Shown: positions 679-29,189 of the stretch, piece by piece
How positions within the stretch are numbered: the stretch's first letter is position 1
Layout of the letters: every line of letters begins with the position of its first letter
Origin: an uncultured virus (IMG/VR IMGVR_UViG_3300049733_000582)
Lineage: Duplodnaviria; Heunggongvirae; Uroviricota; Caudoviricetes
Length of the DNA: 64,000 nucleotides
IMG/VR virus record: IMGVR_UViG_3300049733_000582
Direction: 5' to 3' (one strand)
Translations under genes and position numbers: made by a program
The notes under the pieces: model-generated
Seen by the model: the letters and a program-made list of their open reading frames with translations, nothing else
Told to the model about the DNA's origin: nothing
The model's database searches: none

Positions 679-2916
679 TCAGGGGATCGTGAACGGCGCG
701 GCGGGCGAGATCGTCGAGAACGGGCAGCCGCCGCCGCCGGGGAGCGTCACGAACGCGAGGTACACCGTGATCGCGCTGCCTCCGAGCCCGGACGGCACCA
801 CCACGGCCAGCGGCGAGTTGTTCGTCGCCGGCCAGCCCTCGATCTGGCCGAAGCCGTCGAGCGGGCCGGAGTTGCCGGGAGTGATGATCCCCGCGCCGTT
901 CAGCTGGAGGACCAGCACCATCAGCGGGTCGAGGTTGAGCGGGATCGTGCCGCAGGCGCCGAGCGGGATCCCCGGGATGCTTCCCAGCGCCATCGCGAGC
1001 ACGTAGAGCCGGTTGGCGTCCGGGAGCCCGCCGCCGAGGCAGACCGGCACGACGGACGGACTGGCCGGGGCGGCCTGGTAGAGGATCGGGCCCGCGCCCG
1101 CGAAGGTGCGCGTGGTGTTCGCGAGGTCGAAGGGCGACGCGGTCGTGAACAGCTCGAAGATCGCCCGTTCGGTCCCCGTGCCCCAGCTCATCTGGTTGGA
1201 CAGGTTCGACTGGATCTCGGCGCCGGTGGTCTTGTCCCCTCCGGCGGAGTAGCCGACCAGGCAGTCCCGCACGCTCATCGCCCCGTAGGTCAGCGAGAAG
1301 CTCCCGTTGAAGTACAGGGTGATCGAGAAGGTGTTCAGGACGCTCTGGCCGGACTCGTACACGTTGTAGGCGGCGGTGACGCTGTTCGCGCTCGAGGAAA
1401 CGCTGATCGAGCCCTCCGGCGTATAGGAGGGCCGGTAGGCGGCGGCGGTCAGATCGTCCCAGGCGCCGCAGATCCGGGGGAACAGGCTCAGGTGCTCCAT
1501 CGTCGCCTCGGTGAGGTCGAGGTCCACGCCCCCGAGAGAGAGATGACCGTCGGACCGGACGAAGACCGAGCCGTACTTCCCGCCGGCGAACTGGATCGAG
1601 CCGCTGGGCAGCAGGTACTCGTACGCATCGTCGTCGCCGAGCGGGATCGGCGAGCTGTTCGCGGTGTGGTTCGCGTTCCAGTTGATCGTTCCCGTGTAGG
1701 GGAAGCCCATGATCAGCGGGTAGTCGAACACCGCGACCGGAGCCGTGTTGATGGGGGAGGCGGGGAGCGGGGCCGCGGGCTCAGTCCCGGTGGTCACCGG
1801 GTAGCCGCCCGTCTGGCCGACGACGATGTTGGTGACGGTTCCGGGCGGGTTGGGTGCGATCACGCCGTAGTTGTAGGAGAACGTGCCGTCGCTGTTGAAG
1901 GTCACGCTGAAGCTGTTGAGCGAGCCCGGCAGGGCGAAGTACGGCACGTTGGTCCAGGCCACGGTCGTGGACGAGGCGGTCTGCGACACGACGATCGTGC
2001 CGTCGGAGCCCGGGTACCCGCTGAGGTCCGGCTGGAGGTCGCTCCAGGCGACCGACAGGGAACCCGCCAGGCTCAGGAAATCGAGCGGAGTCGGGGCGTA
2101 CGTGTAGTCCGTGTACGCAAAGTTGATTACGCCGTTGGATTGCACGTGGAACGAGGTGTAGCGGTTCCCATGGAAGGGGAAGGTCCAGCCCGGGAGGCTG
2201 ATCTCCACCTCGTCGTCGTCATAGAAGGTGAGCCGGCCCGACGTGGGGAGCGTGGGGGCGAAGCGCAGGCAGCGGTTCGCGAGCGCGCCCGCCGTGGAGG
2301 CCGGCGAGAAGAACTGGTACATCCCGGCCTCGGTCCCCGTGCCGATGAGGGCCGGGCACTGGGGGGCCGTCGTGAAGTCGGTCACGGTCCCGACGCCCGC
2401 CGTGTTGGCGTTGCCCGTGCTGAAGCCGACGAAGGCGGCCGCGGTGGCGCTGAGCGGGGTCGGGTTCAGGTTCCCGTACACGAAGTCGAAGGTCCCGTCC
2501 GTGCGCAGGATGCAGCTCACGGTGTTGAGGTTGGCCGGGTTGCCCGCGGCCGGGACGTTGCTCCAGCGGAACTCGAACTCGGTCGCGCTGATCCGTCCCG
2601 CGGTCACGCGTCCGCCGAGGCTCGGGTCGAGGTCGACCCAGAGCGGAGCGATCCTTGGCACGTCGGCGAGGAGGTCCGCGGGGGGGCTCGTGGCGTTCGG
2701 GGCCGACGTGGTCGTGTACTGGAAGCACAGGAGCCCGTTCGCGGTGATGAAGCAGCTCTTGTAGCGGACTCCGCCGACCGGGAATCCGAAGTCCTCCGGA
2801 AAGACCACCTGGCGCGAGCCGAAGTTCGTGAAGGGAAGGTTCGAAGGCAAGCGGGCGCGACCGGCCTCCGCAGGAAGCGCGATGCCCCCCAGCAGCAGTG
2901 CAATCCAGGGTCTCAT
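679..2916 (-). CDS. secreted protein with three nidogen/NIDO-like repeats, paralog 1
   Basis: Signal peptide MRPWIALLLGGIALPAEA; three repeats of F-P-F-x-G-x-x-Y...NG...(A/P)xWxDL; C-terminal IPLNLDPL domain; GGAGG RBS. Confidence 0.8.
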   Translation of the reverse strand: MRPWIALLLGGIALPAEAGRARLPSNLPFTNFGSRQVVFPEDFGFPVGGVRYKSCFITANGLLCFQYTTTSAPNATSPPADLLADVPRIAPLWVDLDPSLGGRVTAGRISATEFEFRWSNVPAAGNPANLNTVSCILRTDGTFDFVYGNLNPTPLSATAAAFVGFSTGNANTAGVGTVTDFTTAPQCPALIGTGTEAGMYQFFSPASTAGALANRCLRFAPTLPTSGRLTFYDDDEVEISLPGWTFPFHGNRYTSFHVQSNGVINFAYTDYTYAPTPLDFLSLAGSLSVAWSDLQPDLSGYPGSDGTIVVSQTASSTTVAWTNVPYFALPGSLNSFSVTFNSDGTFSYNYGVIAPNPPGTVTNIVVGQTGGYPVTTGTEPAAPLPASPINTAPVAVFDYPLIMGFPYTGTINWNANHTANSSPIPLGDDDAYEYLLPSGSIQFAGGKYGSVFVRSDGHLSLGGVDLDLTEATMEHLSLFPRICGAWDDLTAAAYRPSYTPEGSISVSSSANSVTAAYNVYESGQSVLNTFSITLYFNGSFSLTYGAMSVRDCLVGYSAGGDKTTGAEIQSNLSNQMSWGTGTERAIFELFTTASPFDLANTTRTFAGAGPILYQAAPASPSVVPVCLGGGLPDANRLYVLAMALGSIPGIPLGACGTIPLNLDPLMVLVLQLNGAGIITPGNSGPLDGFGQIEGWPATNNSPLAVVVPSGLGGSAITVYLAFVTLPGGGGCPFSTISPAAPFTIP

Positions 2917-3037
2917 CCTGGCACCTCCAGATTCCTTTGGTGTGGAAAGGCTCGTCCTCTCGTCGTGTCCCTGTTCCGGTCAGCGAGGACCCCGCGGCGG
3001 CGCACAGGGGACGCGCGCCGCCGCGGGGTCGGGATCG

Positions 3038-5281
3038 TCAGGGGATCGTGAACGGCGCGGCGGGCGAGATCGTCGAGAACGGGCAGCCGCCGCCGCCGGG
3101 GAGCGTCACGAAGGCCAGGTAGAGGGTGATCGCGCTGCCTCCGAGCCCGGACGGCACCACCACGGCCAGCGGCGAGTTGTTCGTCGCCGGCCAGCCCTCG
3201 ATCTGGCCGAACCCGTCGAGCGGGCCGGAGATGCCGGGCGTGATGATCCCCGCGCCGTTCAGCTGGAGGACCAGCACCATCAGCGGGTCGAGGTTGAGCG
3301 GGATCGTGCCGCAGGCGCCGAGCGGGATCCCCGGGATGCTCCCCAGCGCCATCGCGAGCACGTAGAGCCGGTTGGCGTCCGGCAGCCCGCCGCCGAGGCA
3401 GACCGGCACCGTGGAGGGGCTCGCCGGCACGCCCTGGTAGATGATCGGACCCGCGCCCGCGAACGTGCGCGTGGTGTTCGCGAGGTCGAAGGGCAACGCG
3501 GTCGTGAACAGCTCGAAGAGCGCGCGTTCCGTCCCGGTCCCCCAGCTCGACTGGTTGGACAGGTTCGACTGGGTCTCGGTCCCGGTGGTCTTGTCGCCTC
3601 CGGCGGAGTAGCCGACCAGGCAGTCCCGCACGCTCATCGCGCCGTAGGTCAGCGAGAAGCTCCCGTTGAAGTTCAGCGTGATCGAGAAGCTGTTCGGGGG
3701 GGTGGTGAGGCCGCTCTCGAAGACGTTGTAGGTGGCGGTGACGCTGCTCGCGGTCGAGGAGACGGCGATCGAGCCTTCCGGCATGTACGAAGGGCCGTAG
3801 GCGGCGGCGGTCAGGTCGTCCCAGGCGCCGCAGATCCGGGGGAACAGGCTCAGGTGCTCCTGGACCGCCTCGGAGAGGTCGATGTCGACGCCTCCGAGCG
3901 ACAGGTAGCCGTCGGACCGCACGAAGACCGAGCCGTACCTCCCGCCCGCGAACTGGATCGTGCCGCTGGGCAGCGGGTACTCGTACGAGTCGTCGTCGCC
4001 GAGCGGGATCGCCGAGCTGTTCGCGGTGTGGTTCGCGTTCCAGTTGATCGTTCCCGTGTAGGGGAAGCTGCCGATCAGCGGGTAGTCGTACACCGCGACC
4101 GGCGCGGTGTTGATGGGGGAGGCGGGGAGCGGAGCCGGGGGCTCGCCCCCCGAGGTCACGGGGTAGCCGCCGGTCTGGCCGACGACGATGTTGGTGGCGG
4201 TGCCGGGCGGGGTCGTCCCGATCACGCCGTAGTTGTAGGAGAACGTGCCGTCGCTGTTGAAGGTCACGCTGAAGGTGTTCGTGGAGCCGGTCACGCCGTA
4301 GTACGGCACGTTGGTCCAGGCCACGGTCGCGGACGTGCCGGTCTGCGACACGGCGATCGTGCCGGCGGAGCCCGGCGGCCCGTTGAGATCCGGCTGGAGG
4401 TCGCTCCAGGCGACCGACAGCGAGCCAGCCAGGCTCAGGAAGTCGACCGGAGCCGGACCGTAGGTGTAGTCCGTGTAGGCGAAGTTGATGACGCCGTTGG
4501 TGTGGACGTGGAAGGAGGTGTAGCGGTTCCCGTGGAACGGGAAGGTCCAGCCCGGGAGGCTGATCTCCACCTCGTCGTCGTCGTAGAAGGTGAGCCGGCC
4601 CGACGTCGGGAGCGTGGGAGCGAAGCGCAGGCAGCGGTTCGCGAGCGCGCCCGCGGCGGAGGCCGGGGAGAAGAACTGGTACATCCCGGCCTCGGTCCCC
4701 GTGCCGATGAGGGCCGGGCACTGGGGGGCCATCGTGAAGTCGGTCACGGTCCCGACGCCGGCCGTGTTGGCGTTGCCCGTGCTGAAGCCGACGTAGGCGG
4801 CCGCGGTGGCGCTGAGCGGGGTCGGGTTCAGGTTCCCGTAGACGAAGTCGAAGGTCCCGTCGGTGCGCAGGATGCAGCTCACCGTGTTGAGGTTCGCCGG
4901 GTTGCCCGCGGCGGGGACGTTGCCCCAGCGGAACTCGAACTCGGTCGCGCTGATCCGTCCCGCGGTCACGCGGCCGCCCAGAGTCGGGTCGAGATCGACC
5001 CAGAGCGGCGCGATGCGCGGCATGTCGGCGAGGAGCTGCGAGGGCGGGGTCGTGGCGGTCGGGGCCGACGTGGTCGTGTACTGGAAGCACAGGAGCCCGT
5101 TCGCGGTGATGAAGCAGCTCTTGTAGTGCACGCCGCCGAACGGAAAGCTGAAGTCCTGCGGGAAGACCACCTGGCGCGAGCCGGAGGTCCCGAAGGTGAG
5201 GTTCGACGGCAGCCGGATGCGACCCGCCTCGGCCGTCGAAAGCGCGATTCCCGTGAGGAGAACGGCAACCCGGAATCTCAT
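3038..5281 (-). CDS. secreted protein with three nidogen/NIDO-like repeats, paralog 2
   Basis: Highly similar to paralog 1; ATG at 5281 (MRFRVAVLL) preceded by GGAGGTG. Confidence 0.8.
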   Translation of the reverse strand: MRFRVAVLLTGIALSTAEAGRIRLPSNLTFGTSGSRQVVFPQDFSFPFGGVHYKSCFITANGLLCFQYTTTSAPTATTPPSQLLADMPRIAPLWVDLDPTLGGRVTAGRISATEFEFRWGNVPAAGNPANLNTVSCILRTDGTFDFVYGNLNPTPLSATAAAYVGFSTGNANTAGVGTVTDFTMAPQCPALIGTGTEAGMYQFFSPASAAGALANRCLRFAPTLPTSGRLTFYDDDEVEISLPGWTFPFHGNRYTSFHVHTNGVINFAYTDYTYGPAPVDFLSLAGSLSVAWSDLQPDLNGPPGSAGTIAVSQTGTSATVAWTNVPYYGVTGSTNTFSVTFNSDGTFSYNYGVIGTTPPGTATNIVVGQTGGYPVTSGGEPPAPLPASPINTAPVAVYDYPLIGSFPYTGTINWNANHTANSSAIPLGDDDSYEYPLPSGTIQFAGGRYGSVFVRSDGYLSLGGVDIDLSEAVQEHLSLFPRICGAWDDLTAAAYGPSYMPEGSIAVSSTASSVTATYNVFESGLTTPPNSFSITLNFNGSFSLTYGAMSVRDCLVGYSAGGDKTTGTETQSNLSNQSSWGTGTERALFELFTTALPFDLANTTRTFAGAGPIIYQGVPASPSTVPVCLGGGLPDANRLYVLAMALGSIPGIPLGACGTIPLNLDPLMVLVLQLNGAGIITPGISGPLDGFGQIEGWPATNNSPLAVVVPSGLGGSAITLYLAFVTLPGGGGCPFSTISPAAPFTIP

Positions 5282-5342
5282 GCTGGGCACCTCCAGAGGG
5301 CGGCGGCCGCGTGCGAGCGGGCCGCCGCGGGAAACGGGAACA

Positions 5343-7580
5343 TCAGGGGATCGTGAACGGCGCGGCGGGCGAGATCGTCGAGAACGGGCAGCCGCCGCCG
5401 CCGGGGAGCGTCACGAACGCGAGGTACACCGTGATCGCGCTGCCTCCGAGCCCGGACGGCACCACGACGGCCAGCGGCGAGTTGTTCGTCGCCGGCCAGC
5501 CCTCGATCTGGCCGAACCCGTCGAGCGGGCCGGAGATGCCGGGCGTGATGATCCCCGCGCCGCTCAGCTGGAGGATCAGCACCATCAGCGGGTCGAGGTT
5601 GAGCGGGATCGTGCCGCAGGCGCCGAGCGGGAGGCCCGGCACGCTCCCCAGGGACATCGCGAGCACGTAGAGCTTGTTGGCGTCCGGCAGCCCGCCGCCC
5701 AGGCAGACCGGCACGACGGACGGGCTGGCCGGCGCGGCCTGGTAGAGGATCGGGCCCGCGCCCGCGAACGTGCGCGTGGTGTTGGCGAGATCGAAGGTCG
5801 ACGCGATCGTGAACTGCTCGAAGACCGCGCGTTCGGTCCCGGTCCCCCAGCTCATCTGGCTGGACAGGTTCGAGGAGGTCTCGGCGCCGGTGGTCTTGTC
5901 CCCTCCGGCGGAGTAGCCGACCAGGCAGTCCCGCACGCCCATCGCTCCATAGGTCAGCGAGAAGCTCCCGTTGAAGCTCAGCGTGATCGAGAAGGTGTTC
6001 AGCACGCTCTGGCCGGTCTCGAAGACGTTGTAGGTGGCGGTGACGCTGCTCGGGGTCGAGGTGACGCTGATCGAGCCTTCCGGCGTATAGGAGGGCCCGA
6101 AGGCGGCGGCGGTCAGGTCGTCCCAGGCGCCGCAGATCCGGGGGAACAGGCTCAGGTGCTCGGGCGTGGATTCGATGATGTCGATGTCCGCGCCCCCGAG
6201 CGACAGGTAGCCGTCGGACCGGACGAACACCGAGGCATACTTCCCGCCGGCGAACTGGATCGTGCCGCTCGGCAGCAGGTACTCGTACGAATCGTCGTCG
6301 CCGAGCGGGATCGGCGAGCTGTTCGCGGTGTGGTTCGCGTTCCAGTGGATCGTTCCCGTGTAGGGGAAGCTGGTGATCAGCGGGTAATCGAACACCGCGA
6401 CCGGCGCCGTGTTGATGGGGGAGGTGGGGAGCGGGGCCGCGAGCTCGGTCCCCGTGGTCACCGGGTAGCCGCCGGTCTGGCCGACGACGATGTTGGTGGC
6501 GGTGGTGGGCGGTGTGTTCGAGATCACGCCGTAGTTGTAGGAGAACGTGCCGTCGCTGTTGAACGTCACGCTGAACGTGCTGGTGGAGCCGGTCACGCCG
6601 TAGTAGGGCACGTTGGTCCAGGCCACGGTCGTGGACGTGGAGGTCTGCGACACGGCGATCGTGCCGGCGGAGCCCGCCCGTCCGTTGAGATCCGGCTGGA
6701 GGTCGCTCCAGGCGACCGACAGGCCGCCCCCGTGACCGAGGAAGTCCGCCGGGAAGGGGCCGTAGGTGAAGTCCGAGTAGGCGAAGTTCACGCTGCCGTT
6801 GGAGTGCACGTGGAAGGACGTGTAGCGGTTCCCGTGGAACGGGAAGGTCCAGCCCGGGAGGGCGACCTCCACGTCGTCGTCGTCGAAGAGGGTGAGCCGG
6901 CCCGAGGCGGGCAGGGCGGGGGCGAAGCGCAGGCACCGGTTCGCGAGCGCGCCCGCGCCGGAGGCCGGGGAGAAGAACTGGTACATCGCGGCTTCCGTCC
7001 CGGTGCCGATGAGAGCGGGGCACTGGGGGGCCATCGTGAAGTTGGTCACGGTCCCGATGCCGGCGGTGTTGGCGTTGCCCGTGCTGAAGCCGACGAAGGC
7101 GGCCGCCTGGGCGCTCTGCGGGGTCGGGTTCAGGTTCCCGTAGACGAAGTCGAAGGTCCCGTCCGTGCGCAGGATGCAGCTCACGGTGTTGAGGTTCGCC
7201 GGGTTGCCCGCGGCCGGGACGTTGCTCCAGCGGAACTCGAACTCGGTCGCGCTGATCCGCCCCGCGGTCACGCGGCCGCCGAGGCTCGGGTCGAGATCGA
7301 CCCAGAGCGGCGCAATGCGCGGCATCTCGGCGATGAGCAGCGCGGGAGGGCTCGTTGCGCTCGGGGCGGACGTGCTCGTGTACTGGAAGCACAGGAGCCC
7401 GTTCGCGGTGATGAAGCAGCTCTTGTAGCGGACTCCGCCGAACGGGAAGCTGAAGTCCTCCGGGAAGACGACCTGGCGCTCGTCGAAGTTCCCGAAGGGG
7501 AGGTTCGCCGGCAGACGGGTGCGACCGGCCTCGGCCGGAATCGCGAGTCCGGCGAGAAGCACGGCAATCCAGGGTCTCAT
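5343..7580 (-). CDS. secreted protein with three nidogen/NIDO-like repeats, paralog 3
   Basis: Highly similar to paralogs 1 and 2; ATG at 7580 (MRPWIAVLL) preceded by GGAGGTG. Confidence 0.8.
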   Translation of the reverse strand: MRPWIAVLLAGLAIPAEAGRTRLPANLPFGNFDERQVVFPEDFSFPFGGVRYKSCFITANGLLCFQYTSTSAPSATSPPALLIAEMPRIAPLWVDLDPSLGGRVTAGRISATEFEFRWSNVPAAGNPANLNTVSCILRTDGTFDFVYGNLNPTPQSAQAAAFVGFSTGNANTAGIGTVTNFTMAPQCPALIGTGTEAAMYQFFSPASGAGALANRCLRFAPALPASGRLTLFDDDDVEVALPGWTFPFHGNRYTSFHVHSNGSVNFAYSDFTYGPFPADFLGHGGGLSVAWSDLQPDLNGRAGSAGTIAVSQTSTSTTVAWTNVPYYGVTGSTSTFSVTFNSDGTFSYNYGVISNTPPTTATNIVVGQTGGYPVTTGTELAAPLPTSPINTAPVAVFDYPLITSFPYTGTIHWNANHTANSSPIPLGDDDSYEYLLPSGTIQFAGGKYASVFVRSDGYLSLGGADIDIIESTPEHLSLFPRICGAWDDLTAAAFGPSYTPEGSISVTSTPSSVTATYNVFETGQSVLNTFSITLSFNGSFSLTYGAMGVRDCLVGYSAGGDKTTGAETSSNLSSQMSWGTGTERAVFEQFTIASTFDLANTTRTFAGAGPILYQAAPASPSVVPVCLGGGLPDANKLYVLAMSLGSVPGLPLGACGTIPLNLDPLMVLILQLSGAGIITPGISGPLDGFGQIEGWPATNNSPLAVVVPSGLGGSAITVYLAFVTLPGGGGCPFSTISPAAPFTIP

Positions 7581-7770
7581 GGTGGCACCTCCGGAGTCGG
7601 TTCGTCCCGAGAGAGGGGGCCTCTCGCTGTCCCGAGTCCTGCGTGCCCGGTGTCCTGCGCCCGGGCGTCCTGGAAGCTGTCCCACATCCAGGCGCCGCCG
7701 ATGATCGTTCGGAGCCGGGGCCGAGTCAAGCGGCGGGGAGGGACCGCGACGCTCGCTCGTGGGAGAGGAG

Positions 7771-7814
7771 TGGTACCGGGGGACGGACTTGAACCGTCGA
7801 CCTTGGGGTTATGA
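7771..7814 (-). other. prophage attachment site: displaced 3' half of a tRNA with CAT anticodon (Met or Ile2)
   Basis: Minus strand TCATAA-CCCCA-AGGTC-GACGG-TTCAAGT-CCGTC-CCCCGGT-A-CCA gives anticodon loop, T arm, acceptor 3' strand and CCA; no D arm or 5' acceptor strand upstream; adjacent to integrase. Confidence 0.85.
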
Positions 7815-7952
7815 AGCCAACGTGATTGGGCCCTGAGGTGTCGCAGAGCTAGACACCGCTCCGGTCTACGGAGAGTTCCGTGGACCGAGCCGAAGGACGC
7901 GCCCCCGCCGTAGCCGATAGATCGGTTGTCGGCATGGGATTCCGGGGGAGTC

Positions 7953-8819
7953 ATGTCGGCAGTGACCATCCGCGACTTCCACGCCGAGTGGGAGACCGCG
8001 ACCTACGCCCGGCGACGAGGCCGCTGGGTCAAGCACGACCTCACCAGACTCCGGGCTTTCCTGGACTGGATTCCCCCCAACGTCGTCTACATCCCGGAGG
8101 TGACGGCGCGCCTCGTCTCCGCGTTCCTGGCGGAGGGCAGGCTCCAGAAGGGCTGGTCACCGACGACGGTCATCCGATACCGGCAGGAGATCCACGCCTT
8201 CCTCGAGCAGGCGGTCCGGTTCGAGCTGATCGATCGGAACCCGGCCAAGCTGGTCCCGCGGCCGAAGCTGCCGCGCCGGCAGATCACCTTTCTGACGGTG
8301 CAACAGATCGGGCAGCTCCTCGAGGTCCTCGAGGGCGATCCGCTCCGTCCGCTGGTGGCGACCTGTCTCTATGCGGGACTCCGTCGCTCGGAAGCGGTCT
8401 GGCTCACGTGGGCGGACCTCGAGCTCGGCGACGAGCCGAGGCTGCACGTCCGGGCCAAGACGGTCGAGGGCGAGAGCTGGGTGCCCAAGACAGGCGACGA
8501 TCGCACCGTTCCGATCTCCCAGCGCCTCATGGCCCTCCTCCTGCAAGTCCCCCGAGTCAATCAGACCTGGGTCTTTGCATCTCCTCGGGGCGGTCGCTGG
8601 CACGAGGACTCGATCACCCATCGACTGAGGCGCGTCCTTCGCGCGGCGAAGCTCCCGTGGCGGCTCATGGACTGCCGGCATACCGCCGGGTCACAGTGGG
8701 TGCAGAGGGGGGTCCCCCTGCTCTCCGTGTCGAAGCTACTGGGGAACAGCTACCAGGTAGCCGAGCGGTTCTACTGCCACCTGCAGCCGAACCGGATGCG
8801 CTCCGAGGTCGAGTATTAG
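7953..8819 (+). CDS. tyrosine recombinase/integrase
   Basis: YAGLRRSE (catalytic R), DCRHT, LLGN, FY near C-terminus; SAM-like N-terminal part; RBS GGGGGAG before ATG 7953. Confidence 0.9.
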   Translation: MSAVTIRDFHAEWETATYARRRGRWVKHDLTRLRAFLDWIPPNVVYIPEVTARLVSAFLAEGRLQKGWSPTTVIRYRQEIHAFLEQAVRFELIDRNPAKLVPRPKLPRRQITFLTVQQIGQLLEVLEGDPLRPLVATCLYAGLRRSEAVWLTWADLELGDEPRLHVRAKTVEGESWVPKTGDDRTVPISQRLMALLLQVPRVNQTWVFASPRGGRWHEDSITHRLRRVLRAAKLPWRLMDCRHTAGSQWVQRGVPLLSVSKLLGNSYQVAERFYCHLQPNRMRSEVEY

Positions 8820-21540: not shown

Positions 21541-21803
21541 GCGAACGCCGATTCAGGCTGCTCCACCACTCGCAGGACGTGCGCAGGAATCCCAGCCTGC
21601 CCAGGTCGGTGCCCTGGTCTCTCGTGGCGCCCCATGAGGCGCAGGCCCAGTTCAACCATGGCGGCCAGACGCTCGAGCGACTGAACGAGCGGGGTGGCCT
21701 CAGCCCATACGAACTCTACGCGGTCGTTCACGGCCTGAGGTACGACAAGGTGCGCGGGCTGAGTAGCGAGCTCGTTCTCCAGTGGCTGAGAGGCGTTGCA
21801 TGA
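21537..21803 (+). CDS. phage hypothetical protein
   Basis: VPWSLVAPHEAQAQFNHGGQTLERLNERGGLS motif family. Confidence 0.65.
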   Translation: MSERRFRLLHHSQDVRRNPSLPRSVPWSLVAPHEAQAQFNHGGQTLERLNERGGLSPYELYAVVHGLRYDKVRGLSSELVLQWLRGVA

Positions 21804-23542
21804 AGGCCAACACGATCTCGCTCGGCGTGATCGAAAAGGGCCCGAGCCTCGACGTCAACCTCCCGGTCCTCGTGGACACGCGCGCGCTCATCACCGGGAA
21901 CAGCGGCGCCGGGAAGAGCCGACTCCTGCGTCGGCTGGCCGAGCAGGCCTTCGGGAAGGTCCAGATCATCGTGCTCGATCCCGAGGGCGAGTTCGTGACC
22001 CTCCGGGAGCGGCACGCCTTCCTCCTGGCCGGCCGCGGCGGCGAGGTGCCGGCGGAACCGCGCGCCGCCGCGCTCCTCGCGCGCCGCCTCATGGAGCTCA
22101 ACGTCTCGGCGGTCCTCGACCTCTACGACCTGAAGCTCCACGAGCGGCGCTCGTTCGCGCGCCTCTTCCTCGAGGCCCTGGTCGATCTGCCCAAGGACCT
22201 CTACGCGCCGGTCCTGGTTATGGTGGACGAGGCGCACCTCTTCTGCCCGGAGAAGAGCGCAGGGGAATCCGAGAGCACGAGCGCGGTCATCGAACTCATG
22301 ACGCGCGGGCGGAAGCGCGGGCTCTGCGGGATCCTGGCGACGCAGCGCCTCTCGAAGCTCCACAAGGACGCGGCCGCCGAGGCGAAGAACGTGTTCATCG
22401 GGGGGATCACGCTCGACGTCGACCAGAAGCGGGCCGCGGACACGCTCGGGATCGCCGGCCGCGAGGGCCGCCTCGGCCTCCGCCAGCTCGAGCCCGGGAC
22501 GTTCCTGGCGTTCGGGCCCGCGCTCGGGCACCGGGACGTCCTCCCGTTCCGGGTGGGGGAGACGCGCACGACGCACCCCAAGGCCGGGGAACGCCACGAG
22601 CAGAAGCCGCCACCCCCGCCCGAGGCGATCCAGAAGGTCGCGTCAGAGCTCAAGGACCTCCCCCAGCAGGCCGCGGACGAGATCCGCACGCTGCAGGCAG
22701 CGCAGGCCCGGGTGCGCGAGCTCGAACGCGAGCTCAAGGCCGCGCGCACCGCGACTCCGGCGCCGGCGCCACCGAAGCGGGTCGAAGTGCCGGTGCTTCG
22801 CGAGCCCCAGCTCACCCGCCTCGAGAGAGCCCTGGGATCGCTAGTGGACGCGATCGACCACGAGGCCGAGCTCAAGGCGAAGCGCACGGAGCGCATCCGG
22901 GAGGTCCTGGTCCCGATCCAGGAAGCGGTGACGAGCCTTCGCGGACACGCAGGCCGTACCTACGAAACGCTTCTCGGTCCGGTGCACGTGGCGAAACCCC
23001 TGAAGGCGATGAGGTTCCACGCCGATTCACGAATTCATGAATCCCTGAATCGGAAGGGTGCCCAACCTGCACAACCGACCGGCGCGCTCGGCAAGGGCGA
23101 GGCTCGCATCCTGACCGCGATCGCCCAGCACAGCACACAGGGTGGGGTCACCCGCGAGCAGCTCTCGGTCCTGACCGGCTACAAGCGCTCGAGCCGAGAC
23201 GCCTACCTGCAGCGCCTCTCGGCCGCGGGCCTAGTGGGCACGGTCGGGGACCGGATCAACGTGACCGATTCTGGGATGGATGCGCTGCCCTCGGACTTCC
23301 GCCCGCTCCCGACCGGCGACGAGCTGCGGAGGCACTGGCTCGAGCGCCTCCCCGAAGGGGAGCGGCGGATCCTCGCGCTCCTGATCGAGCGCTACCCCGA
23401 GGCCGTGGCGCGCGAGGAGCTGGGTGACCCGATCGGTTACAAGCGGTCCTCGCGGGATGCTTTCATCCAGCGGCTCGCCGCGCGTCGGCTTGTGCAGACC
23501 GAGCGGGGGACCGTGCGCGCGTCGGGGGTCCTCTTCTCGTGA
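21800..23542 (+). CDS. HerA/DUF87-like ATPase with two C-terminal winged-helix repeats
   Basis: GNSGAGKS, LDPEGEF, VDEAH, RGRKRG, ATQR; duplicated GYKRSSRDA. Confidence 0.85.
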   Translation: MKANTISLGVIEKGPSLDVNLPVLVDTRALITGNSGAGKSRLLRRLAEQAFGKVQIIVLDPEGEFVTLRERHAFLLAGRGGEVPAEPRAAALLARRLMELNVSAVLDLYDLKLHERRSFARLFLEALVDLPKDLYAPVLVMVDEAHLFCPEKSAGESESTSAVIELMTRGRKRGLCGILATQRLSKLHKDAAAEAKNVFIGGITLDVDQKRAADTLGIAGREGRLGLRQLEPGTFLAFGPALGHRDVLPFRVGETRTTHPKAGERHEQKPPPPPEAIQKVASELKDLPQQAADEIRTLQAAQARVRELERELKAARTATPAPAPPKRVEVPVLREPQLTRLERALGSLVDAIDHEAELKAKRTERIREVLVPIQEAVTSLRGHAGRTYETLLGPVHVAKPLKAMRFHADSRIHESLNRKGAQPAQPTGALGKGEARILTAIAQHSTQGGVTREQLSVLTGYKRSSRDAYLQRLSAAGLVGTVGDRINVTDSGMDALPSDFRPLPTGDELRRHWLERLPEGERRILALLIERYPEAVAREELGDPIGYKRSSRDAFIQRLAARRLVQTERGTVRASGVLFS

Positions 23543-24744
23543 CCGGGCCCACCTGGTGCCTCCTCCAGGGCGACGCCCGCGAGCAGCTCCGGACCCTGCC
23601 CGAGGAGTCGGTGCACTGCGTGGTGACCTCACCGCCCTACCTGGGCCTTCGGCGCTACGGCGGAGGTCCTGGGGAGATTGGGATGGAGGAGACCCTAGAG
23701 GAGCACCTCGCGGCTCTCGTGGAGTCCTTCCGCGAAGTGCGGCGCGTCCTCCGGCGGGACGGCTCCCTCTTCGTCTGGATGGGGGACATCTTCAACGAAT
23801 CGGGCCGGGGGGGCGGCGAGGGCGGCACGTGGACCTACCGCGGCCGCGCCAAGGGGCGCATCCGTCTCCCAGGCTTCCGGCGGAAGGAGCTGATCGGACT
23901 CCCTTGGCGGGTGACGTTCGCGCTCCAGGCCGACGGGTGGCTCCTCCGACGGGACATCATCTGGTTCAAGAAGAACCCCCGACCTGAGCCCGCACGCGAT
24001 CGACCCGCGAGCGCTCACGACTTCGGCTTCCTCCTCACCCGTCGCAGCAGCTACTACTACGACGGCGAGGACTTCCGGGAGCCGCATCAGACCCCGTTCA
24101 AGCACCGCCGGCGCAAGCAGGGGAAGCGGCAGTTCCGCGGGAATGAATCGCTCCGCCCGCGCGGCAACCTGGACCACGACGAGAACCCGGAGGATCGGTA
24201 CTGGAACCGGAGCGGCCGCGCGCTCCGGGACGTCTGGGAGATCGCGACCCACGCCTTCCGCGGGGCGCATACCGCGACCTTCCCGCCGGAGCTCGCGCGC
24301 CGGTGCATCCTCCTCGGGACGTCCGATGGTGGGGCGTGCGCCGAATGCGGGAAGCAGCTCGCGCGGGTCCTCGAGCTCGGGCCTCACGATGTCGAGCATC
24401 AGCGGGCCTGCGGCGCGGACGAGAACAGGACCTACGCAGGACGGTCGCTCAAGGACTACGGGGCGGCCGGCTCGACACAGGCGCCGAACTCGATCAAGCG
24501 GCGGGTCCTGAACAGCCTCCGGAAGCGGCGCACGGCCGGTTGGGCGCCTGTCTGCAAGTGCGAGGCTCCGTCCGCACCCGCCGTCGTTCTGGACCCCTTC
24601 GCGGGATCCGGGACAACGGGCGTGGTCGCGCTCGAGCAGGGCCGGTCCTTCGTCGGGATCGACCTCAACCCCCGCTACGTGGCGATGGCCCGCCGGCGGA
24701 TCAACCTCGAGGTCCCGTTCCTGGGCCAGGAGCTCCGCCCATGA
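23539..24744 (+). CDS. N4/N6 DNA methyltransferase (beta class)
   Basis: VTSPPY, HTATFP, VLDPFAGSGTTG. Confidence 0.9.
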   Translation: MTGPTWCLLQGDAREQLRTLPEESVHCVVTSPPYLGLRRYGGGPGEIGMEETLEEHLAALVESFREVRRVLRRDGSLFVWMGDIFNESGRGGGEGGTWTYRGRAKGRIRLPGFRRKELIGLPWRVTFALQADGWLLRRDIIWFKKNPRPEPARDRPASAHDFGFLLTRRSSYYYDGEDFREPHQTPFKHRRRKQGKRQFRGNESLRPRGNLDHDENPEDRYWNRSGRALRDVWEIATHAFRGAHTATFPPELARRCILLGTSDGGACAECGKQLARVLELGPHDVEHQRACGADENRTYAGRSLKDYGAAGSTQAPNSIKRRVLNSLRKRRTAGWAPVCKCEAPSAPAVVLDPFAGSGTTGVVALEQGRSFVGIDLNPRYVAMARRRINLEVPFLGQELRP

Positions 24745-25324: not shown

Positions 25325-25746
25325 CCCCGGACGACGTCTACGCCCGCCTCCCCGCGCTGTACTGCAAGGGGCTCTGCCATGCCTCCTGCGGGCCGGTCCC
25401 CATGACCCAGATCGAGGAGGAGCGGGTATGCGAGCTCCTTGCACCGGAGGACGCGGCGCGCATCCGAGAATCCGCTTCCACGGGCCGCCTACGCGGTCGG
25501 GCCTTCCTGAGCGCGCTCAGCGTCGAGCTGAACCGAGCGGTCGAGGCCGGCCGGGATCCTCGGTGCGCCGCGCTGGACCTTGAGACGAAGCGCTGCCGCG
25601 TCTACGACCGCCGGCCGCTGATCTGCCGGCTGTTCGGGATGGTGAAGGCGATGCGGTGCCCGCATGGATGTCGCCCGGTCGCTTGGGTTCCGCATCGGGC
25701 AGCCTCGCGCTACTTACAAGAGTTGGATCAGATGCAACTGCGATAA
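25321..25746 (+). CDS. YkgJ-family (CxxCxxCC-like) Zn/Fe-S protein
   Basis: CKGLCHASCG...C..LD...RCRVYDRRPLICRLFG. Confidence 0.8.
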   Translation: MTPDDVYARLPALYCKGLCHASCGPVPMTQIEEERVCELLAPEDAARIRESASTGRLRGRAFLSALSVELNRAVEAGRDPRCAALDLETKRCRVYDRRPLICRLFGMVKAMRCPHGCRPVAWVPHRAASRYLQELDQMQLR

Positions 25747-26167
25747 GGATGTGGAAGGCCCCGACCGGCCGCGCAAACCGTTTGTATGGCGAGGTGCAAG
25801 ATGTTAGCGGCTTCACGGCTTTTGGGGATGGACAAAGATCGTTCGGGACCAACAGTGAGGACCCCGTTGGAATTGTCCCAGTTAATCCTGAATGGCCAGT
25901 TCCCATTCTTCTTCTGATCGTCCCCATTCCCTTGATCATAGTCGTCGAAGTGCTCTAGGGCATTGCGGACTATCTCAAGAGCAGGGATAGCCTTCTTGAA
26001 ATCGTTGATCGCTTGGGTGAGTCGAGCAGAGTGCTCACGCTCTACGTTCATGCTTGCATAGCTGGCGGCGCGCAACAACCCGCGAAGGGAAAAGGTAAAG
26101 AGCGTGGCGTGGATGAATCTATCCGGATGGGAATTGCTCTGTTCGATGATCTTGGCTTCATTCTCTA

Positions 26168-27090
26168 GAAGCGGTTTCATAACCGGTTGAGCGTGATGAG
26201 GACGCAGGCAACGTGGAGGAAGGCGAGAAACATCTGGGGCGAGCGATCATGGCGCACCAGGAGACGACGATAGGAGCCCAACCAGGCAATCGTTCGCTCC
26301 ACGATCCATCGTCGGCGGTAGCGTCGAAGCACGCGCCGGTCTTCGAATCGGCGGACGCGGCGGTTCTTCCGGTAGGGGCAGATCAGCTGGATCCCGCGCT
26401 GGGCGAGGGAGCGCCGGAGTGGATCGCTGTCGTAGCCGCGATCAGCGATCAAACGCGTGGGCTTCGGTCGAGGGTGTCCGTGGCCTCCAAGGGGAACGGA
26501 AATGGTCTTCAGCGTGCTGTGGACGAGCGTCGTTTCCGCCGGTGAGGCGGAGGCAACTGATACTCCCAGAGGAAGACCCTGGCCGTCGACCACCACCATG
26601 CACTTTGAGCCTTTCCCCCTCTTAGTTTTCCCGACTGCGGACCCCCTTTTTTCGCAGGCATGAACGTGGCATCGATGAAGGACTCTCCCCACTCGAGCCG
26701 CCCGCGCTCGTTGAGCTGTCCCAGGAAGGCCCTCCAGATCGCCAGCCAGGTTCCGTCTTCCTCCCAGCGCGCGAGCCGTCGCCAGCAGGTGGACGGGCTC
26801 GGGTACCCCTCGGGTAAGTCTCGCCAGCGCGCTCCCGTCTTCAGAACCCAGAGAATCCCGTCCAACACCGCCCGATGAGAAATCCACGGTCGGCCACCTT
26901 GCCGCCCCCTCTTGGTTCGGGGCAGGAGTGGCTCGATCTTGGCCCACTGCTTGTCGGTCAACCGTACGCCGCCTCTTGCCATGCAGAAATCCCTCCGCAT
27001 GACAATTAGCAGAGAGAGGCGTCGCGTACAAGGCCCTTCTAAGTCTCCTTCAGATCCGGACTTGCGACCGACCGGTTATGAAACCGCTTC
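26168..27090 (-). mobile_element. IS5-family (IS427-like) insertion sequence, 923 bp
   Basis: Perfect 20-bp terminal IRs GAAGCGGTTTCATAACCGGT; TA target duplication at 26166-67 and 27091-92. Confidence 0.92.
26177..27000 (-). CDS. IS5-family transposase, two ORFs joined by -1 frameshift
   Basis: ORF A LTDKQW...ILWVLKTGARWRDLP...IDAT; ORF B GKTKRGKG, ADRGYD, RWIVERTIAWL; A6G slippery run at 26646-26652. Confidence 0.9.
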
Positions 27091-27194
27091 TACAGACCAA
27101 GCCCACTGGAGAGCGTAAGAGGCGCACCGATCCCTGACGTCTTTCATTCTGAACCTTATCGGCGAAGCTCGGTCCTCTTCATGAGACGCTCTCG

Positions 27195-27491
27195 ATGATC
27201 CTCGCCTCTCGCGTCCTCTCGGACGGGCGCCAGATCGACGTGGACGCGCTGCTCTACGGGCGGGCGCGCCTCTGCGTGGGCACCGACCCGATCAAACACA
27301 GCTACGACGACTGCTGGTGATACGAGACGCCCGAAGCTGCGGTCGCGGCGATGAACGAATGGGATGCGAGCGGCGAGCCGAAGGGTTGGATGAGTCATCT
27401 GAGCAGCGGACGGCGGCGACCGATAGTGGACGCCAAGAGGGAGTATCCCGAAGTTAACCTAGGCGTAGGTCCTTACGACCTAGCTCTGTGA
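27195..27491 (+). CDS. small phage protein with in-frame TGA (candidate selenoprotein, or pseudogene)
   Basis: MILASRVLSDGRQIDVDALLYGRARLCVG...YDDCW*YETPEAAVAAMNEWDASGEPKGWMSHLSSGRRRP; TGA at 27318-27320. Confidence 0.5.
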
Positions 27492-28249
27492 AAACGGATC
27501 GTTCTCACGTTCTTGTCATCCTTCGTTGTAACTGAAGCTGACACCGAGAATGTGAACTCACCATATGGATCACTTGGCCAGATATCTTCGATGAATGACA
27601 ATGGCAGATTGGCGTGATGCCCGAGCTTGTCCTTGATTTCGATAACGTGGTTGTGGACCTTGACTATAGACCATTTGTCGTCATGGTTATAGGCATTCGG
27701 TCGCGAATCACGTGCGCAATCAAGTACTATCTTGTTAGACCAACTTGTATGAGGCACAGACATTAGCATAACTGTCGCTCGACGTTCGCGCGAATCCAAA
27801 GCAATGTACTCCGAAAGAGTGTAGTACTTTCTCCGATTCAGGTATCTATAAGGGAAGGTGTACGCAGGGATATCGCCAATGCTGCGCACACCAAGCAGAA
27901 CGAGTGATGGAGCAACAGCAATGGCCAGTACCGCCCCATCTTCGGGAGTTGTGAGTCGCACACTGGTGAATCGCGGGCTAGGCTCTATTCGTTCCAGTGC
28001 TGTATCCCTGATTCGCTTTTCCTGATCCGCGGCATCAGGTATTCCTTGATATGAGGCAACGCGGCCATCAGCATCCTCGGAAATACCGAGGTAGAGGACG
28101 CCTCCACGATGATTGCTGAACTGAACTATGTCAGTAGCCAATTCGTGACGCTGCTTATCGGTCGCTGCGTAGCCGGTTCCCTTTATCTCAAGAACTTCAG
28201 ACTCCGGTGTTCCTATCCGTGGCAACGTTGATGGAATAGAGAAGTCCAT
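27473..28249 (-). CDS. AlbA_2/Schlafen-like domain protein
   Basis: ESEVLEIK...DIVQFSNHRGGVLYLGISED; low GC. Confidence 0.8.
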   Translation of the reverse strand: MDFSIPSTLPRIGTPESEVLEIKGTGYAATDKQRHELATDIVQFSNHRGGVLYLGISEDADGRVASYQGIPDAADQEKRIRDTALERIEPSPRFTSVRLTTPEDGAVLAIAVAPSLVLLGVRSIGDIPAYTFPYRYLNRRKYYTLSEYIALDSRERRATVMLMSVPHTSWSNKIVLDCARDSRPNAYNHDDKWSIVKVHNHVIEIKDKLGHHANLPLSFIEDIWPSDPYGEFTFSVSASVTTKDDKNVRTIRFHRARS

Positions 28250-28290
28250 ATTGCACTCGCTTCTGCAGGGAGGCTGGCCCTATGTATGCC

Positions 28291-28923
28291 CTACTTGGGC
28301 CCCTTGTCGAGGAGTCGAAGCGCGGCGTGGTTCATCTCCCGCACTGCCAGGGCTGCCTCATACAGGAAGATCAGAACGCTCACTAGGGTTCCTTCGTAGA
28401 GCGCCGTGAACGGTCCGAAACTCATGAGACGTTGGAATGTCTTGCGCTTGCTCTGCTCGACGTGAATCACCTCGCCGTACTGGAAGGACTCCAAGAGCTC
28501 CTTCAAGGTCAACTTGGTGAAGTTGAACTCGAATGGGACGTAGCTCGCCATGGTCTTCTGAACGGCGGCCCTGGCGCCACGGAAGCCTTCCAAGAGTGCC
28601 TCGTCCTTGACGAAGGTCTCGTAGATCTCGGCGAGGCAACCAAAGGAGATGCCGTCCCCGTCATGGACGAACGCCCTGAGTGTGGTGGTGGCGTTCTCGA
28701 TCGCTTCCCAATCAGGCCCGGTCCTCTCTCCGTGTACGACTCCTTCCGCATCGGTCCATACGCGCGCCTTGGCGTTACCGGCTCGCAGGATTTGGATGAA
28801 CCGCGACCCGTCGATCTTCGAGACTCGTTCATTGAACAGGCTCAAGGCGTCCTTGGCCGTCTCGACGGTCAAGGCGTCTTGCTTCTGCTTTCTCTTCTGC
28901 GCGCTCTCTCTCTTTCCAGCCAT
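28291..28923 (-). CDS. hypothetical protein (possible HEPN/Abi-like)
   Basis: 210-aa helical ORF; LRAF...ISF and YGEVIH motifs. Confidence 0.6.
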   Translation of the reverse strand: MAGKRESAQKRKQKQDALTVETAKDALSLFNERVSKIDGSRFIQILRAGNAKARVWTDAEGVVHGERTGPDWEAIENATTTLRAFVHDGDGISFGCLAEIYETFVKDEALLEGFRGARAAVQKTMASYVPFEFNFTKLTLKELLESFQYGEVIHVEQSKRKTFQRLMSFGPFTALYEGTLVSVLIFLYEAALAVREMNHAALRLLDKGPK

Positions 28924-28979
28924 TGCGTCACGTACCTATCTTCCAGAGTTCCATTAGCACCGGTCAGGTAACCCCAGAG

Positions 28980-29189
28980 CTACTTTGGTTGAGGGAATTT
29001 CACGTCCTGAATTCCCGATTCGGTTCTGGATCCACTGAGCTGCACTCGCACGACGGTGAGGAGGGTGCCCAGAGCATCTTCACGACGGAACCATATCTCT
29101 CGCATCTGGCCGCCCATGTCTAGGACGGCGACCGGCGTGCCGTAATTTCTGGCTTTCATCATGAGTTCTTCGAGGTCTTTCGTGTTCAT
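28980..29189 (-). CDS. small hypothetical protein
   Basis: GGAGG RBS before ATG 29189. Confidence 0.5.
   Translation of the reverse strand: MNTKDLEELMMKARNYGTPVAVLDMGGQMREIWFRREDALGTLLTVVRVQLSGSRTESGIQDVKFPQPK

Follow-up and report, generated by a model that had tools for sequence, protein, structure and literature searches.

The 64,000-nucleotide stretch of DNA analysed here (the window) is the IMG/VR record IMGVR_UViG_3300049733_000582 of an uncultured virus of the Caudoviricetes. Within a prophage, it carries a small gene that is interrupted by an in-frame TGA. We propose that this TGA is a selenocysteine (Sec) codon, read by means of SelB and a selenocysteine insertion sequence (SECIS), and that this holds at the level of the protein family to which the gene belongs. 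From sequence comparison, we give this reading a probability of about 0.8. The first-pass annotation had suggested a selenoprotein in a prophage, and the suggestion is upheld by a column occupied by Sec or Cys, by the recurrence of the TGA, by a hairpin that is present in the TGA forms and absent from the Cys forms, and by the Sec machinery of the hosts.

The open reading frame (ORF) starts with an ATG at 27195 and runs for 41 codons, ending with the residues ...HSYDDCW, to the TGA at 27318-27320. Past this codon the same frame stays open for 56 codons, starting with YETPEAAVAAMNEWDASGEPKGWMSHLSSGRRRP, until a second TGA at 27489-27491. The full translation of these 56 codons is YETPEAAVAAMNEWDASGEPKGWMSHLSSGRRRPIVDAKREYPEVNLGVGPYDLAL. 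The sequence beyond the TGA had been described as protein-like and in frame, and homology indeed spans the stop codon. When the read-through protein, with Cys in place of the TGA, is used as the query of an exhaustive phmmer search, 717 cluster representatives are recovered at E ≤ 1e-3, of which 62 reach 1e-10 or better; the top match shares 52% identity. The alignments cover the query residues 5-84, i.e. both sides of the TGA. Reinitiation past the TGA was considered and rejected: most TGA forms have Leu in place of the in-frame Met at 27351.

The matches constitute a family of uncharacterised small proteins (about 90–110 residues) from the early regions of phages, and the window ORF is an intact member. 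The annotated members, from Sinorhizobium phage Phosso and from the jumbo phages Bambus (Brevundimonas), CcrBL9 and C2 (both Caulobacter), are all labelled 'hypothetical protein'. The family motif is [YF]-D-D-x-W-[C/U]-Y ... W-D-G-x-G-E-P-x-G-W-x-R-H ... G-R-R-R-P-x-G-D. Against a family profile hidden Markov model (HMM) built without the window sequence, the window protein scores 118.4 bits, which is rank 17 of 90, and the match extends over the full length of the profile, including W-x-Y, W-D-G-x-G-E-P-x-G-W and G-R-R-R-P.

At the column of the TGA, Cys is invariant in the four annotated phage homologues. The first-pass annotation had mentioned a family with Cys at this position, and the alignments agree: 89 of the 149 protein representatives have Cys (the others are D 24, E 8, Q 5, H 4, R 3 and 16 further residues; the alignment omits one 1296-residue match), while 33 of the 42 non-TGA homologues in the DNA set described below have TGC or TGT. 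The site had also been described as a CxU motif. This is literally true of the window copy (C40-W41-U42), but it is not a motif of the family, since Cys at position -2 occurs in 9 of the 149 representatives and in 3 of 48 TGA forms (the window, L020 and L028). A conserved partner Cys near the Sec, of the CxxU, CxU or UxxC type, was not found. One large protein, P0085 (1296 residues), aligns in six different places with the N-terminal half of the family (query 7-50) and is a repeated form of the domain.

To describe the column at the DNA level, we fished loci from IMG/VR and from contigs of one genome per species with a 20-row subset of the alignment and the peptide patterns WDGxGEPxG(W) and [ST]GRRRPxGD. 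Because both patterns lie downstream of the column, the fishing is not biased towards TGA. The viral set comprises the best 80 of 160 confirmed loci and four phage records, aligned to the HMM in six frames. The codon at the column is TGA in 46 of its 84 rows, TGC in 22, TGT in 9, GAC in 5, and TAG and ATG in one each. Among 11 genome loci it is TGA in two, TGC in five, GAC in one and ATG in one; one locus has a gap and one has no HMM match. The two TGA forms from genomes are L088, from a Planctomycetota metagenome-assembled genome (MAG), and L091, from a Bryobacteraceae MAG; the ATG row (L092) comes from G010, a genome flagged as unpublished. After removal of four duplicates and addition of the window, 90 distinct sequences remain, 48 with TGA and 42 without. 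Since only the loci nearest to the query were kept, the share of TGA should not be read as its frequency across the family. The window genome is therefore not alone in having the TGA, which is shared at this column by 47 other distinct sequences. One further entry, G001, is the same DNA as the window across 1,001 aligned bases (window 26700-27700); it is not independent evidence.

Each of the 48 TGA forms has a single internal stop, followed by 45–56 open codons (median 46; window 56) to the usual end of the family. Most of them (34) terminate at a TGA, and the others at TAG (11) or TAA (3); TGA thus continues to serve as a stop in these phages. Downstream of the hairpin, in the 28 of 48 TGA forms with canonical spacing, the proportion of nonsynonymous differences (pN) is 0.283 compared with a saturated proportion of synonymous differences (pS) of 0.753, giving a pN/pS of 0.38. 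The downstream pN of 21 Cys forms is 0.330; the TGA forms are at least as constrained. The single internal stop, the open frame, the terminal TGA stops and the purifying selection together exclude a shared dead gene and a global change of code. In a quick tree calculated with the Sec column masked, the TGA label needs 5 changes, compared with 30.2 in shuffles (0/500). The rows linked to Pseudomonadota all fall in a clade of 23 (21 Cys, 2 Met), and the TGA forms are all found in the other part of the tree, which has 67 rows (48 TGA, 12 Cys and 7 other). The median terminal branch is 0.59.

A SECIS-like hairpin with G at the start of its loop had been reported just downstream of the TGA, and it lies where it was described: the sequence GCTGC-GGTC-GCGGC begins 15 nt past the TGA, with a UGA-to-loop distance of 20 nt. 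According to the model quoted in a 2026 review of prokaryotic selenoproteomes (PMC13188914), a bacterial SECIS has a loop of 3-9 nt, a stem of 4-16 bp, G in the first two loop positions, a UGA-to-loop distance of 16-37 nt and a minimum free energy (MFE) of at most -7.5 kcal/mol. The window hairpin lies within these bounds (loop GGUC, 5 bp, 20 nt, MFE -7.6 kcal/mol for +10 to +36). We scored the hairpin in the 90 sequences as a contiguous stem of at least 5 bp with a GU-containing loop of 4-6 nt that starts at +18 to +27. Of the 48 TGA forms, 43 have it, compared with 4 of the 42 non-TGA forms (Fisher p = 2.7e-15). Among the TGA forms that have it, 35 show a GGTC loop and 41 a loop start at +21. 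Two of the four non-TGA carriers are L014, a TAG form, and L086, an Asp form. In L014 (1103-1165), the TAG at the Sec column is accompanied by an intact 7-bp hairpin with a GGTC loop; this locus is a recently broken gene or a sequence variant.

The covariation of the stem, which the first-pass annotation had named as a check, also separates the two groups. In the ungapped alignment of the 48 TGA rows (A5), 80.7% of the cells of the helix (columns 25-32 and 37-44) are paired. The covariation score is 0.416, compared with 0.197 in shuffles (0/500 as high) and at most 0.157 in controls in which the pairing partner was slid along the alignment. The same helix in 41 non-TGA rows is 50.3% paired and scores 0.174, compared with 0.152 (52/500). 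RNAalifold finds the same hairpin unaided. No relevant family was detected by Rfam in the five TGA-form loci searched.

The genomes that carry TGA forms also encode the Sec machinery. SelA, SelB and SelD score above the NCBIfam cut-offs in both G002 (the Planctomycetota MAG) and G003 (the Bryobacteraceae MAG), the only genomes with TGA forms, and a tRNA-Sec is detected at 71 bits in G002 and at 67.5 bits in G003. Both hosts examined thus contain selA, selB, selC (tRNA-Sec) and selD, the four genes that the first-pass annotation had named as a check. G002 also encodes a SelD (L101, G002:C1:124500-125700) with an in-frame TGA at G-G-U-A-R-K, followed by an 8-bp hairpin with the loop CGUGC. A loop of the CGUGC type is also seen in a minority of the phage family genes. 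SelB is found in one of six hosts of Cys or Met forms (G009), and one of the negatives is the unpublished G010. G004, the host of an Asp form, has all four Sec components.

The host of the window itself can be placed only loosely, by a flank protein whose nearest Atlas clusters are mostly Planctomycetota. Of 201 Planctomycetota genomes sampled, 145 have SelB above the curated cut-off, which suggests that Sec decoding is the rule in the phylum. A search for further prophage copies found the family in one of 401 Planctomycetota genomes, the centre genome itself, so that no host-correlation statistics can be derived. The flank protein has no match in five other records, nor in the 401 Planctomycetota genomes, where a stricter filter was used, and the portal protein of the window was not found in G002 or G003.

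A number of observations weigh against the proposal, and they concern the hairpin, the column, the hosts and the window copy. The MFE of the window hairpin (-7.6) sits at the limit of the model, and its stem is just 5 bp with one G.U pair. When the 45 nt from the TGA are folded alone, the z-score is 0.58, and 143 of 200 shuffles fold as well or better. The MFE structure of the window pairs 27328-27334 with 27343-27350, which are not the proposed arms. The window sequence alone is thus no better than chance, and it is the comparative association of the TGA with a covarying hairpin that amounts to more than chance. The encoded peptide, A-A-V-A-A (GCN GCN GUN GCN GCN), in turn forces four of the five base pairs. 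In addition, L086 (1118-1180), an Asp form with GAC in the Thermoanaerobaculia MAG G004, has a perfect GCCGC-GGTC-GCGGC without a TGA, which suggests that A-A-V-A-A pre-encodes the hairpin.

As four of the five pairs are given by the peptide, selection on the RNA was tested at synonymous sites only. The pair formed by two wobble positions is complementary in 22 of 23 rows with Ala at both codons, with 6 pair types (permutation p = 5e-5). The Val codon of the loop is GTC in 38 of 45 cases, compared with 34.5% elsewhere in the same genes (p = 7e-12), and the Ala codon before it is GCG in 40 of 47, compared with 39% (p = 1e-10). The pS in the hairpin codons is lowered to 0.594. As judged from these codon choices, the hairpin is selected as RNA, beyond the peptide that it encodes.

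Two of the remaining objections concern the family as a whole. The column has D, E, Q, H, R and other residues in many members, which by this comparison is unlike a catalytic Sec/Cys site. The host correlation rests on two genomes with TGA forms. The others are specific to the window copy. Its C-terminal tail is atypical, about 10 residues over the usual length and located at the junction with a low-GC stretch; in the alignment, family members other than the window end 2-4 codons past a conserved E-Y. At four conserved positions it departs from the majority of the 150 aligned rows, with S67 (R in 126 rows), V78 (G in 132), L69 (P in 87) and A58 (G in 108). An IS5-family insertion element ends about 100 nt before the ATG, and a promoter and terminator scan of the window ORF found neither a sigma-70-like promoter nor a terminator. 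Contigs from two metatranscriptome libraries match 27098-27248 and 27313-27562 exactly, but their strand is unknown and carry-over of DNA is possible.

These features of the window copy would be explained if the family is truly a selenoprotein family and this particular member is silent or decaying, inactivated by the insertion element upstream and the island junction at its 3' end. The position of the element, the tail that extends to 56 codons past the TGA, the four substitutions R67S, G78V, P69L and G58A at conserved positions and the lack of a promoter-like site in the scan all fit this scenario, which we regard as improbable. The TGA, the hairpin and the entire domain are intact, and the HMM score places the window copy well within the family. 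The GC content at third codon positions (GC3) is 0.95 across the first 41 codons; it falls to 0.73 between the TGA and RRRP and to 0.57 over the final 23 codons, in a genome of about 69% GC. The segment 27035-27860 is present unchanged, TGA included, in an independent soil DNA run, and the exact matches in the RNA libraries, although weak, point the same way. The window copy is likely expressed and functional in its host, as far as its sequence can tell. The first-pass annotation had listed a pseudogene as a real alternative. This is rejected for the family and is unlikely for the window copy, considering its HMM rank.

Sec-independent recoding is a less probable alternative, and we consider it quite unlikely. 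Here, the hairpin would aid read-through of the UGA by a near-cognate or suppressor tRNA (Trp, Cys, Arg or Gly), or make the ribosome pause, and the product would contain no selenium. Translation past the TGA and selection on the hairpin would fit this equally well, and the many residues tolerated at the column in relatives are consistent with it. It does not account for the agreement of the hairpin with the specifics of the bacterial SECIS model, with GG or GU at the start of a small loop and a fixed spacing of 20 nt. Nor does it account for the overwhelming preference for Cys as the non-TGA alternative (33/42 in the DNA set), or for the complete Sec system in both TGA-form hosts compared with SelB in one of six Cys/Met hosts.

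An ordinary nonsense mutation, in which TGC or TGT (or CGA) became TGA and just a 41-residue fragment is made, is very improbable. TGA is one step from the Cys codons, the close relative P0005 has Arg at the column, and L014 has TAG there, but the TGA forms amount to 48 distinct sequences, all with the codon at this one column and with saturated synonymous sites. Each of them has one internal stop and a frame that is open to the normal end, with the downstream pN/pS given above, and their terminal branches (median 0.59) show that they are not near-identical copies of one dead gene. Stop-codon-recoded phages exist, but a global alternative code with TGA as sense (table 4 or 25) has a negligible chance of applying here, as TGA is the terminal stop at the conserved C-terminus in 34 of 48 TGA forms, the portal, capsid, methylase and tail genes of the window are open under table 11, and the recoding is limited to one column.

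According to the selenocysteine reading, a Cys codon would have changed to UGA in one large branch of the family, and the mRNA of this branch would carry a bacterial-type SECIS hairpin within the coding sequence, with a GGUC loop from 21 nt past the UGA. In a host with a Sec system, the complex of SelB, GTP and Sec-tRNA(Sec) would bind the hairpin and deliver selenocysteine at the UGA, leading to a 98-residue protein with Sec42. Where SelB or selenium is lacking, the ribosome would terminate after 41 residues. SelB binding, Sec insertion, expression of the window copy and any role of the protein are inferences from the sequence.

It is conceivable, if doubtful, that the UGA and the hairpin also act as a gate that responds to the state of the host. 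The full-length protein would then be made only in selenium-replete, Sec-competent cells, with the stub produced in all others; A-A-V-A-A would be pre-adapted to this arrangement, and switches between Sec, Cys and Asp would track host jumps. If this is true, the switches would mirror moves between soil lineages that use Sec (Planctomycetota, Acidobacteriota) and the Sec-poor Pseudomonadota, and the codon at the column would be a readable marker of host range in viromes.

Table 1 Positions of the candidate selenoprotein gene and of neighbouring features in the window
Feature	Position	Strand	Basis or remark
Small phage protein gene, 98 residues, proposed Sec at codon 42, stop TGA 27489-27491	27195..27491	+	ORF and read-through translation, phmmer, family HMM, AlphaFold 2
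In-frame UGA, proposed Sec codon, residue 42	27318..27320	+	Same column TGA in 47 other distinct homologues
SECIS-like hairpin, stem 27336-27340 / 27345-27349 (5 bp, one G.U), loop GGUC 27341-27344	27336..27349	+	Bacterial SECIS (bSECIS) model, family covariation
Atypical C-terminal tail PEVNLGVGPYDLAL	27447..27488	+	Overlaps 3' end of convergent low-GC gene 27473-28249
Integrase	7914..8816		
IS5-family element	26162..27096		
Inverted repeats of the element, 26 nt, 96% complementary	26162..26187 / 27071..27096		
Transposase, DUF4096 frame	26512..27000	-	
Transposase, DDE frame	26180..26560	-	
Low-GC stretch (GC 0.55)	27450..29100		
Schlafen/AlbA_2-domain gene	27476..28249	-	

The window contains a prophage, with genes for an integrase, a HerA-like ATPase, two DNA methylases, a DUF5131 protein, a portal, a capsid and a tail protein resembling those of gene transfer agents (Table 1). 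No tRNA genes are found within the window. The candidate gene stands alone, with genes on the opposite strand on either side. The upstream neighbour is the IS5-family element, which is bounded by inverted repeats and encodes its transposase in two frames. The trinucleotide CTA on both sides of the element is a likely 3-bp target duplication, and an outward ATG in the repeat now starts a minus-strand ORF (25728-26180). Downstream lies the low-GC stretch, with two minus-strand genes, one encoding a Schlafen/AlbA_2-domain protein and the other a 210-residue protein without a family. PADLOC detected nothing in these low-GC genes. The stretch looks like an inserted accessory module, whose edge replaces the usual C-terminus of the selenoprotein gene.

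Two other regions of the window deserve mention. On the minus strand at 682-7808, outside the prophage and beside the integrase, there are three tandem paralogues of 766-821 residues, two of which have a weak Nidogen-like (NIDO) domain; their nearest Atlas clusters are mostly Planctomycetota. In the early region of the prophage (21782-24741), the HerA-like ATPase (PADLOC HerA and mad8, best E = 1.5e-15) is located directly upstream of an N6/N4 DNA methylase.

The database searches give few clues to the role of the protein. The read-through protein has no Pfam match, and among 52 family members there are only two Pfam matches, both at chance level. Ten of the 52 match phrog_24748 in PHROGs (best E = 3.5e-9), while the match of the window protein itself is weak (E = 0.015) and falls short of the 0.001 cut-off. 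A word-based search of 5.8 billion proteins with the read-through protein returned nothing. The AlphaFold model of the window protein has a mean predicted local distance difference test score (pLDDT) of 86.5 and consists of four β-strands and one helix. In this predicted fold, residue 42 is a part of the strand 39-43, just ahead of the helix 46-55. A Foldseek search of the PDB found no match at E ≤ 1e-3; the best VIA Z is 4.7, so a distant thioredoxin-like relation may still exist. The best match in BFVD is an uncharacterised phage protein (E = 2.9e-3). Structural matches to AcrF1-like proteins are weak and were not used as evidence. The neighbours of the relatives (150 flanking ORFs) are mixed early-region genes with no constant partner.

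Full-text literature searches, which did not cover supplementary files, found no report of a phage-encoded selenoprotein. The words 'phage', 'viral' and 'virus' have no occurrences in the 2026 prokaryotic selenoproteome review (PMC13188914), and phage, viral and virus likewise do not occur in the BSepDB paper (PMC13326102). Phages are mentioned merely in passing in PMC5029168 and 10.1101/2022.07.06.499078.

If confirmed, the genes described here would constitute a bacteriophage-encoded selenoprotein family with clear comparative support, and phages could come to depend on SelB, SelA, SelD and tRNA-Sec of their hosts. They would also provide a natural case of a SECIS that evolved from a peptide-encoded hairpin. 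Standard gene callers split such TGA-containing genes, and the TGA or Cys state of the column could serve to flag Sec-competent hosts in viromes.

The closest parallel is found in the bacterial SelB/SECIS genes, with E. coli fdhF as the prototype, whose SECIS loop is also GGUC. As in these genes, the in-frame UGA of the phage family pairs with Cys in homologues, and the TGA-form hosts examined have selA, selB, selC and selD. A further trait in common is a hairpin that lies within the coding sequence, directly 3' of the UGA, and has a small loop starting with GG or GU (PMC13188914). In contrast to them, the phage family is carried by phages and prophages, is unnamed and has no redox motif, and its Sec column is not strictly Cys. 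The window protein shares its domain and motifs with the Cys-form phage members of the family matched by phrog_24748. Unlike the window, the annotated Cys forms of this type have TGC at the column and no hairpin. Selenoproteins of eukaryotic viruses are known as well: the glutathione peroxidase homologues of poxviruses use a SECIS in the 3' untranslated region together with SBP2. The phage family would similarly borrow the Sec-insertion machinery of its host, but while those viral proteins belong to a known enzyme family, the phage SECIS is of the bacterial type and located within the ORF. For huge phages, PMC10747093 describes predicted tRNA-Sec genes and speculates on Sec-containing proteins, and names no selenoprotein gene or SECIS. 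In the window, by comparison, a candidate gene and its SECIS are identified, and no tRNA gene is present. The mechanism is one that is already known, and what is new is its carriage by phages, the protein family and a hairpin that originates from the encoded peptide.

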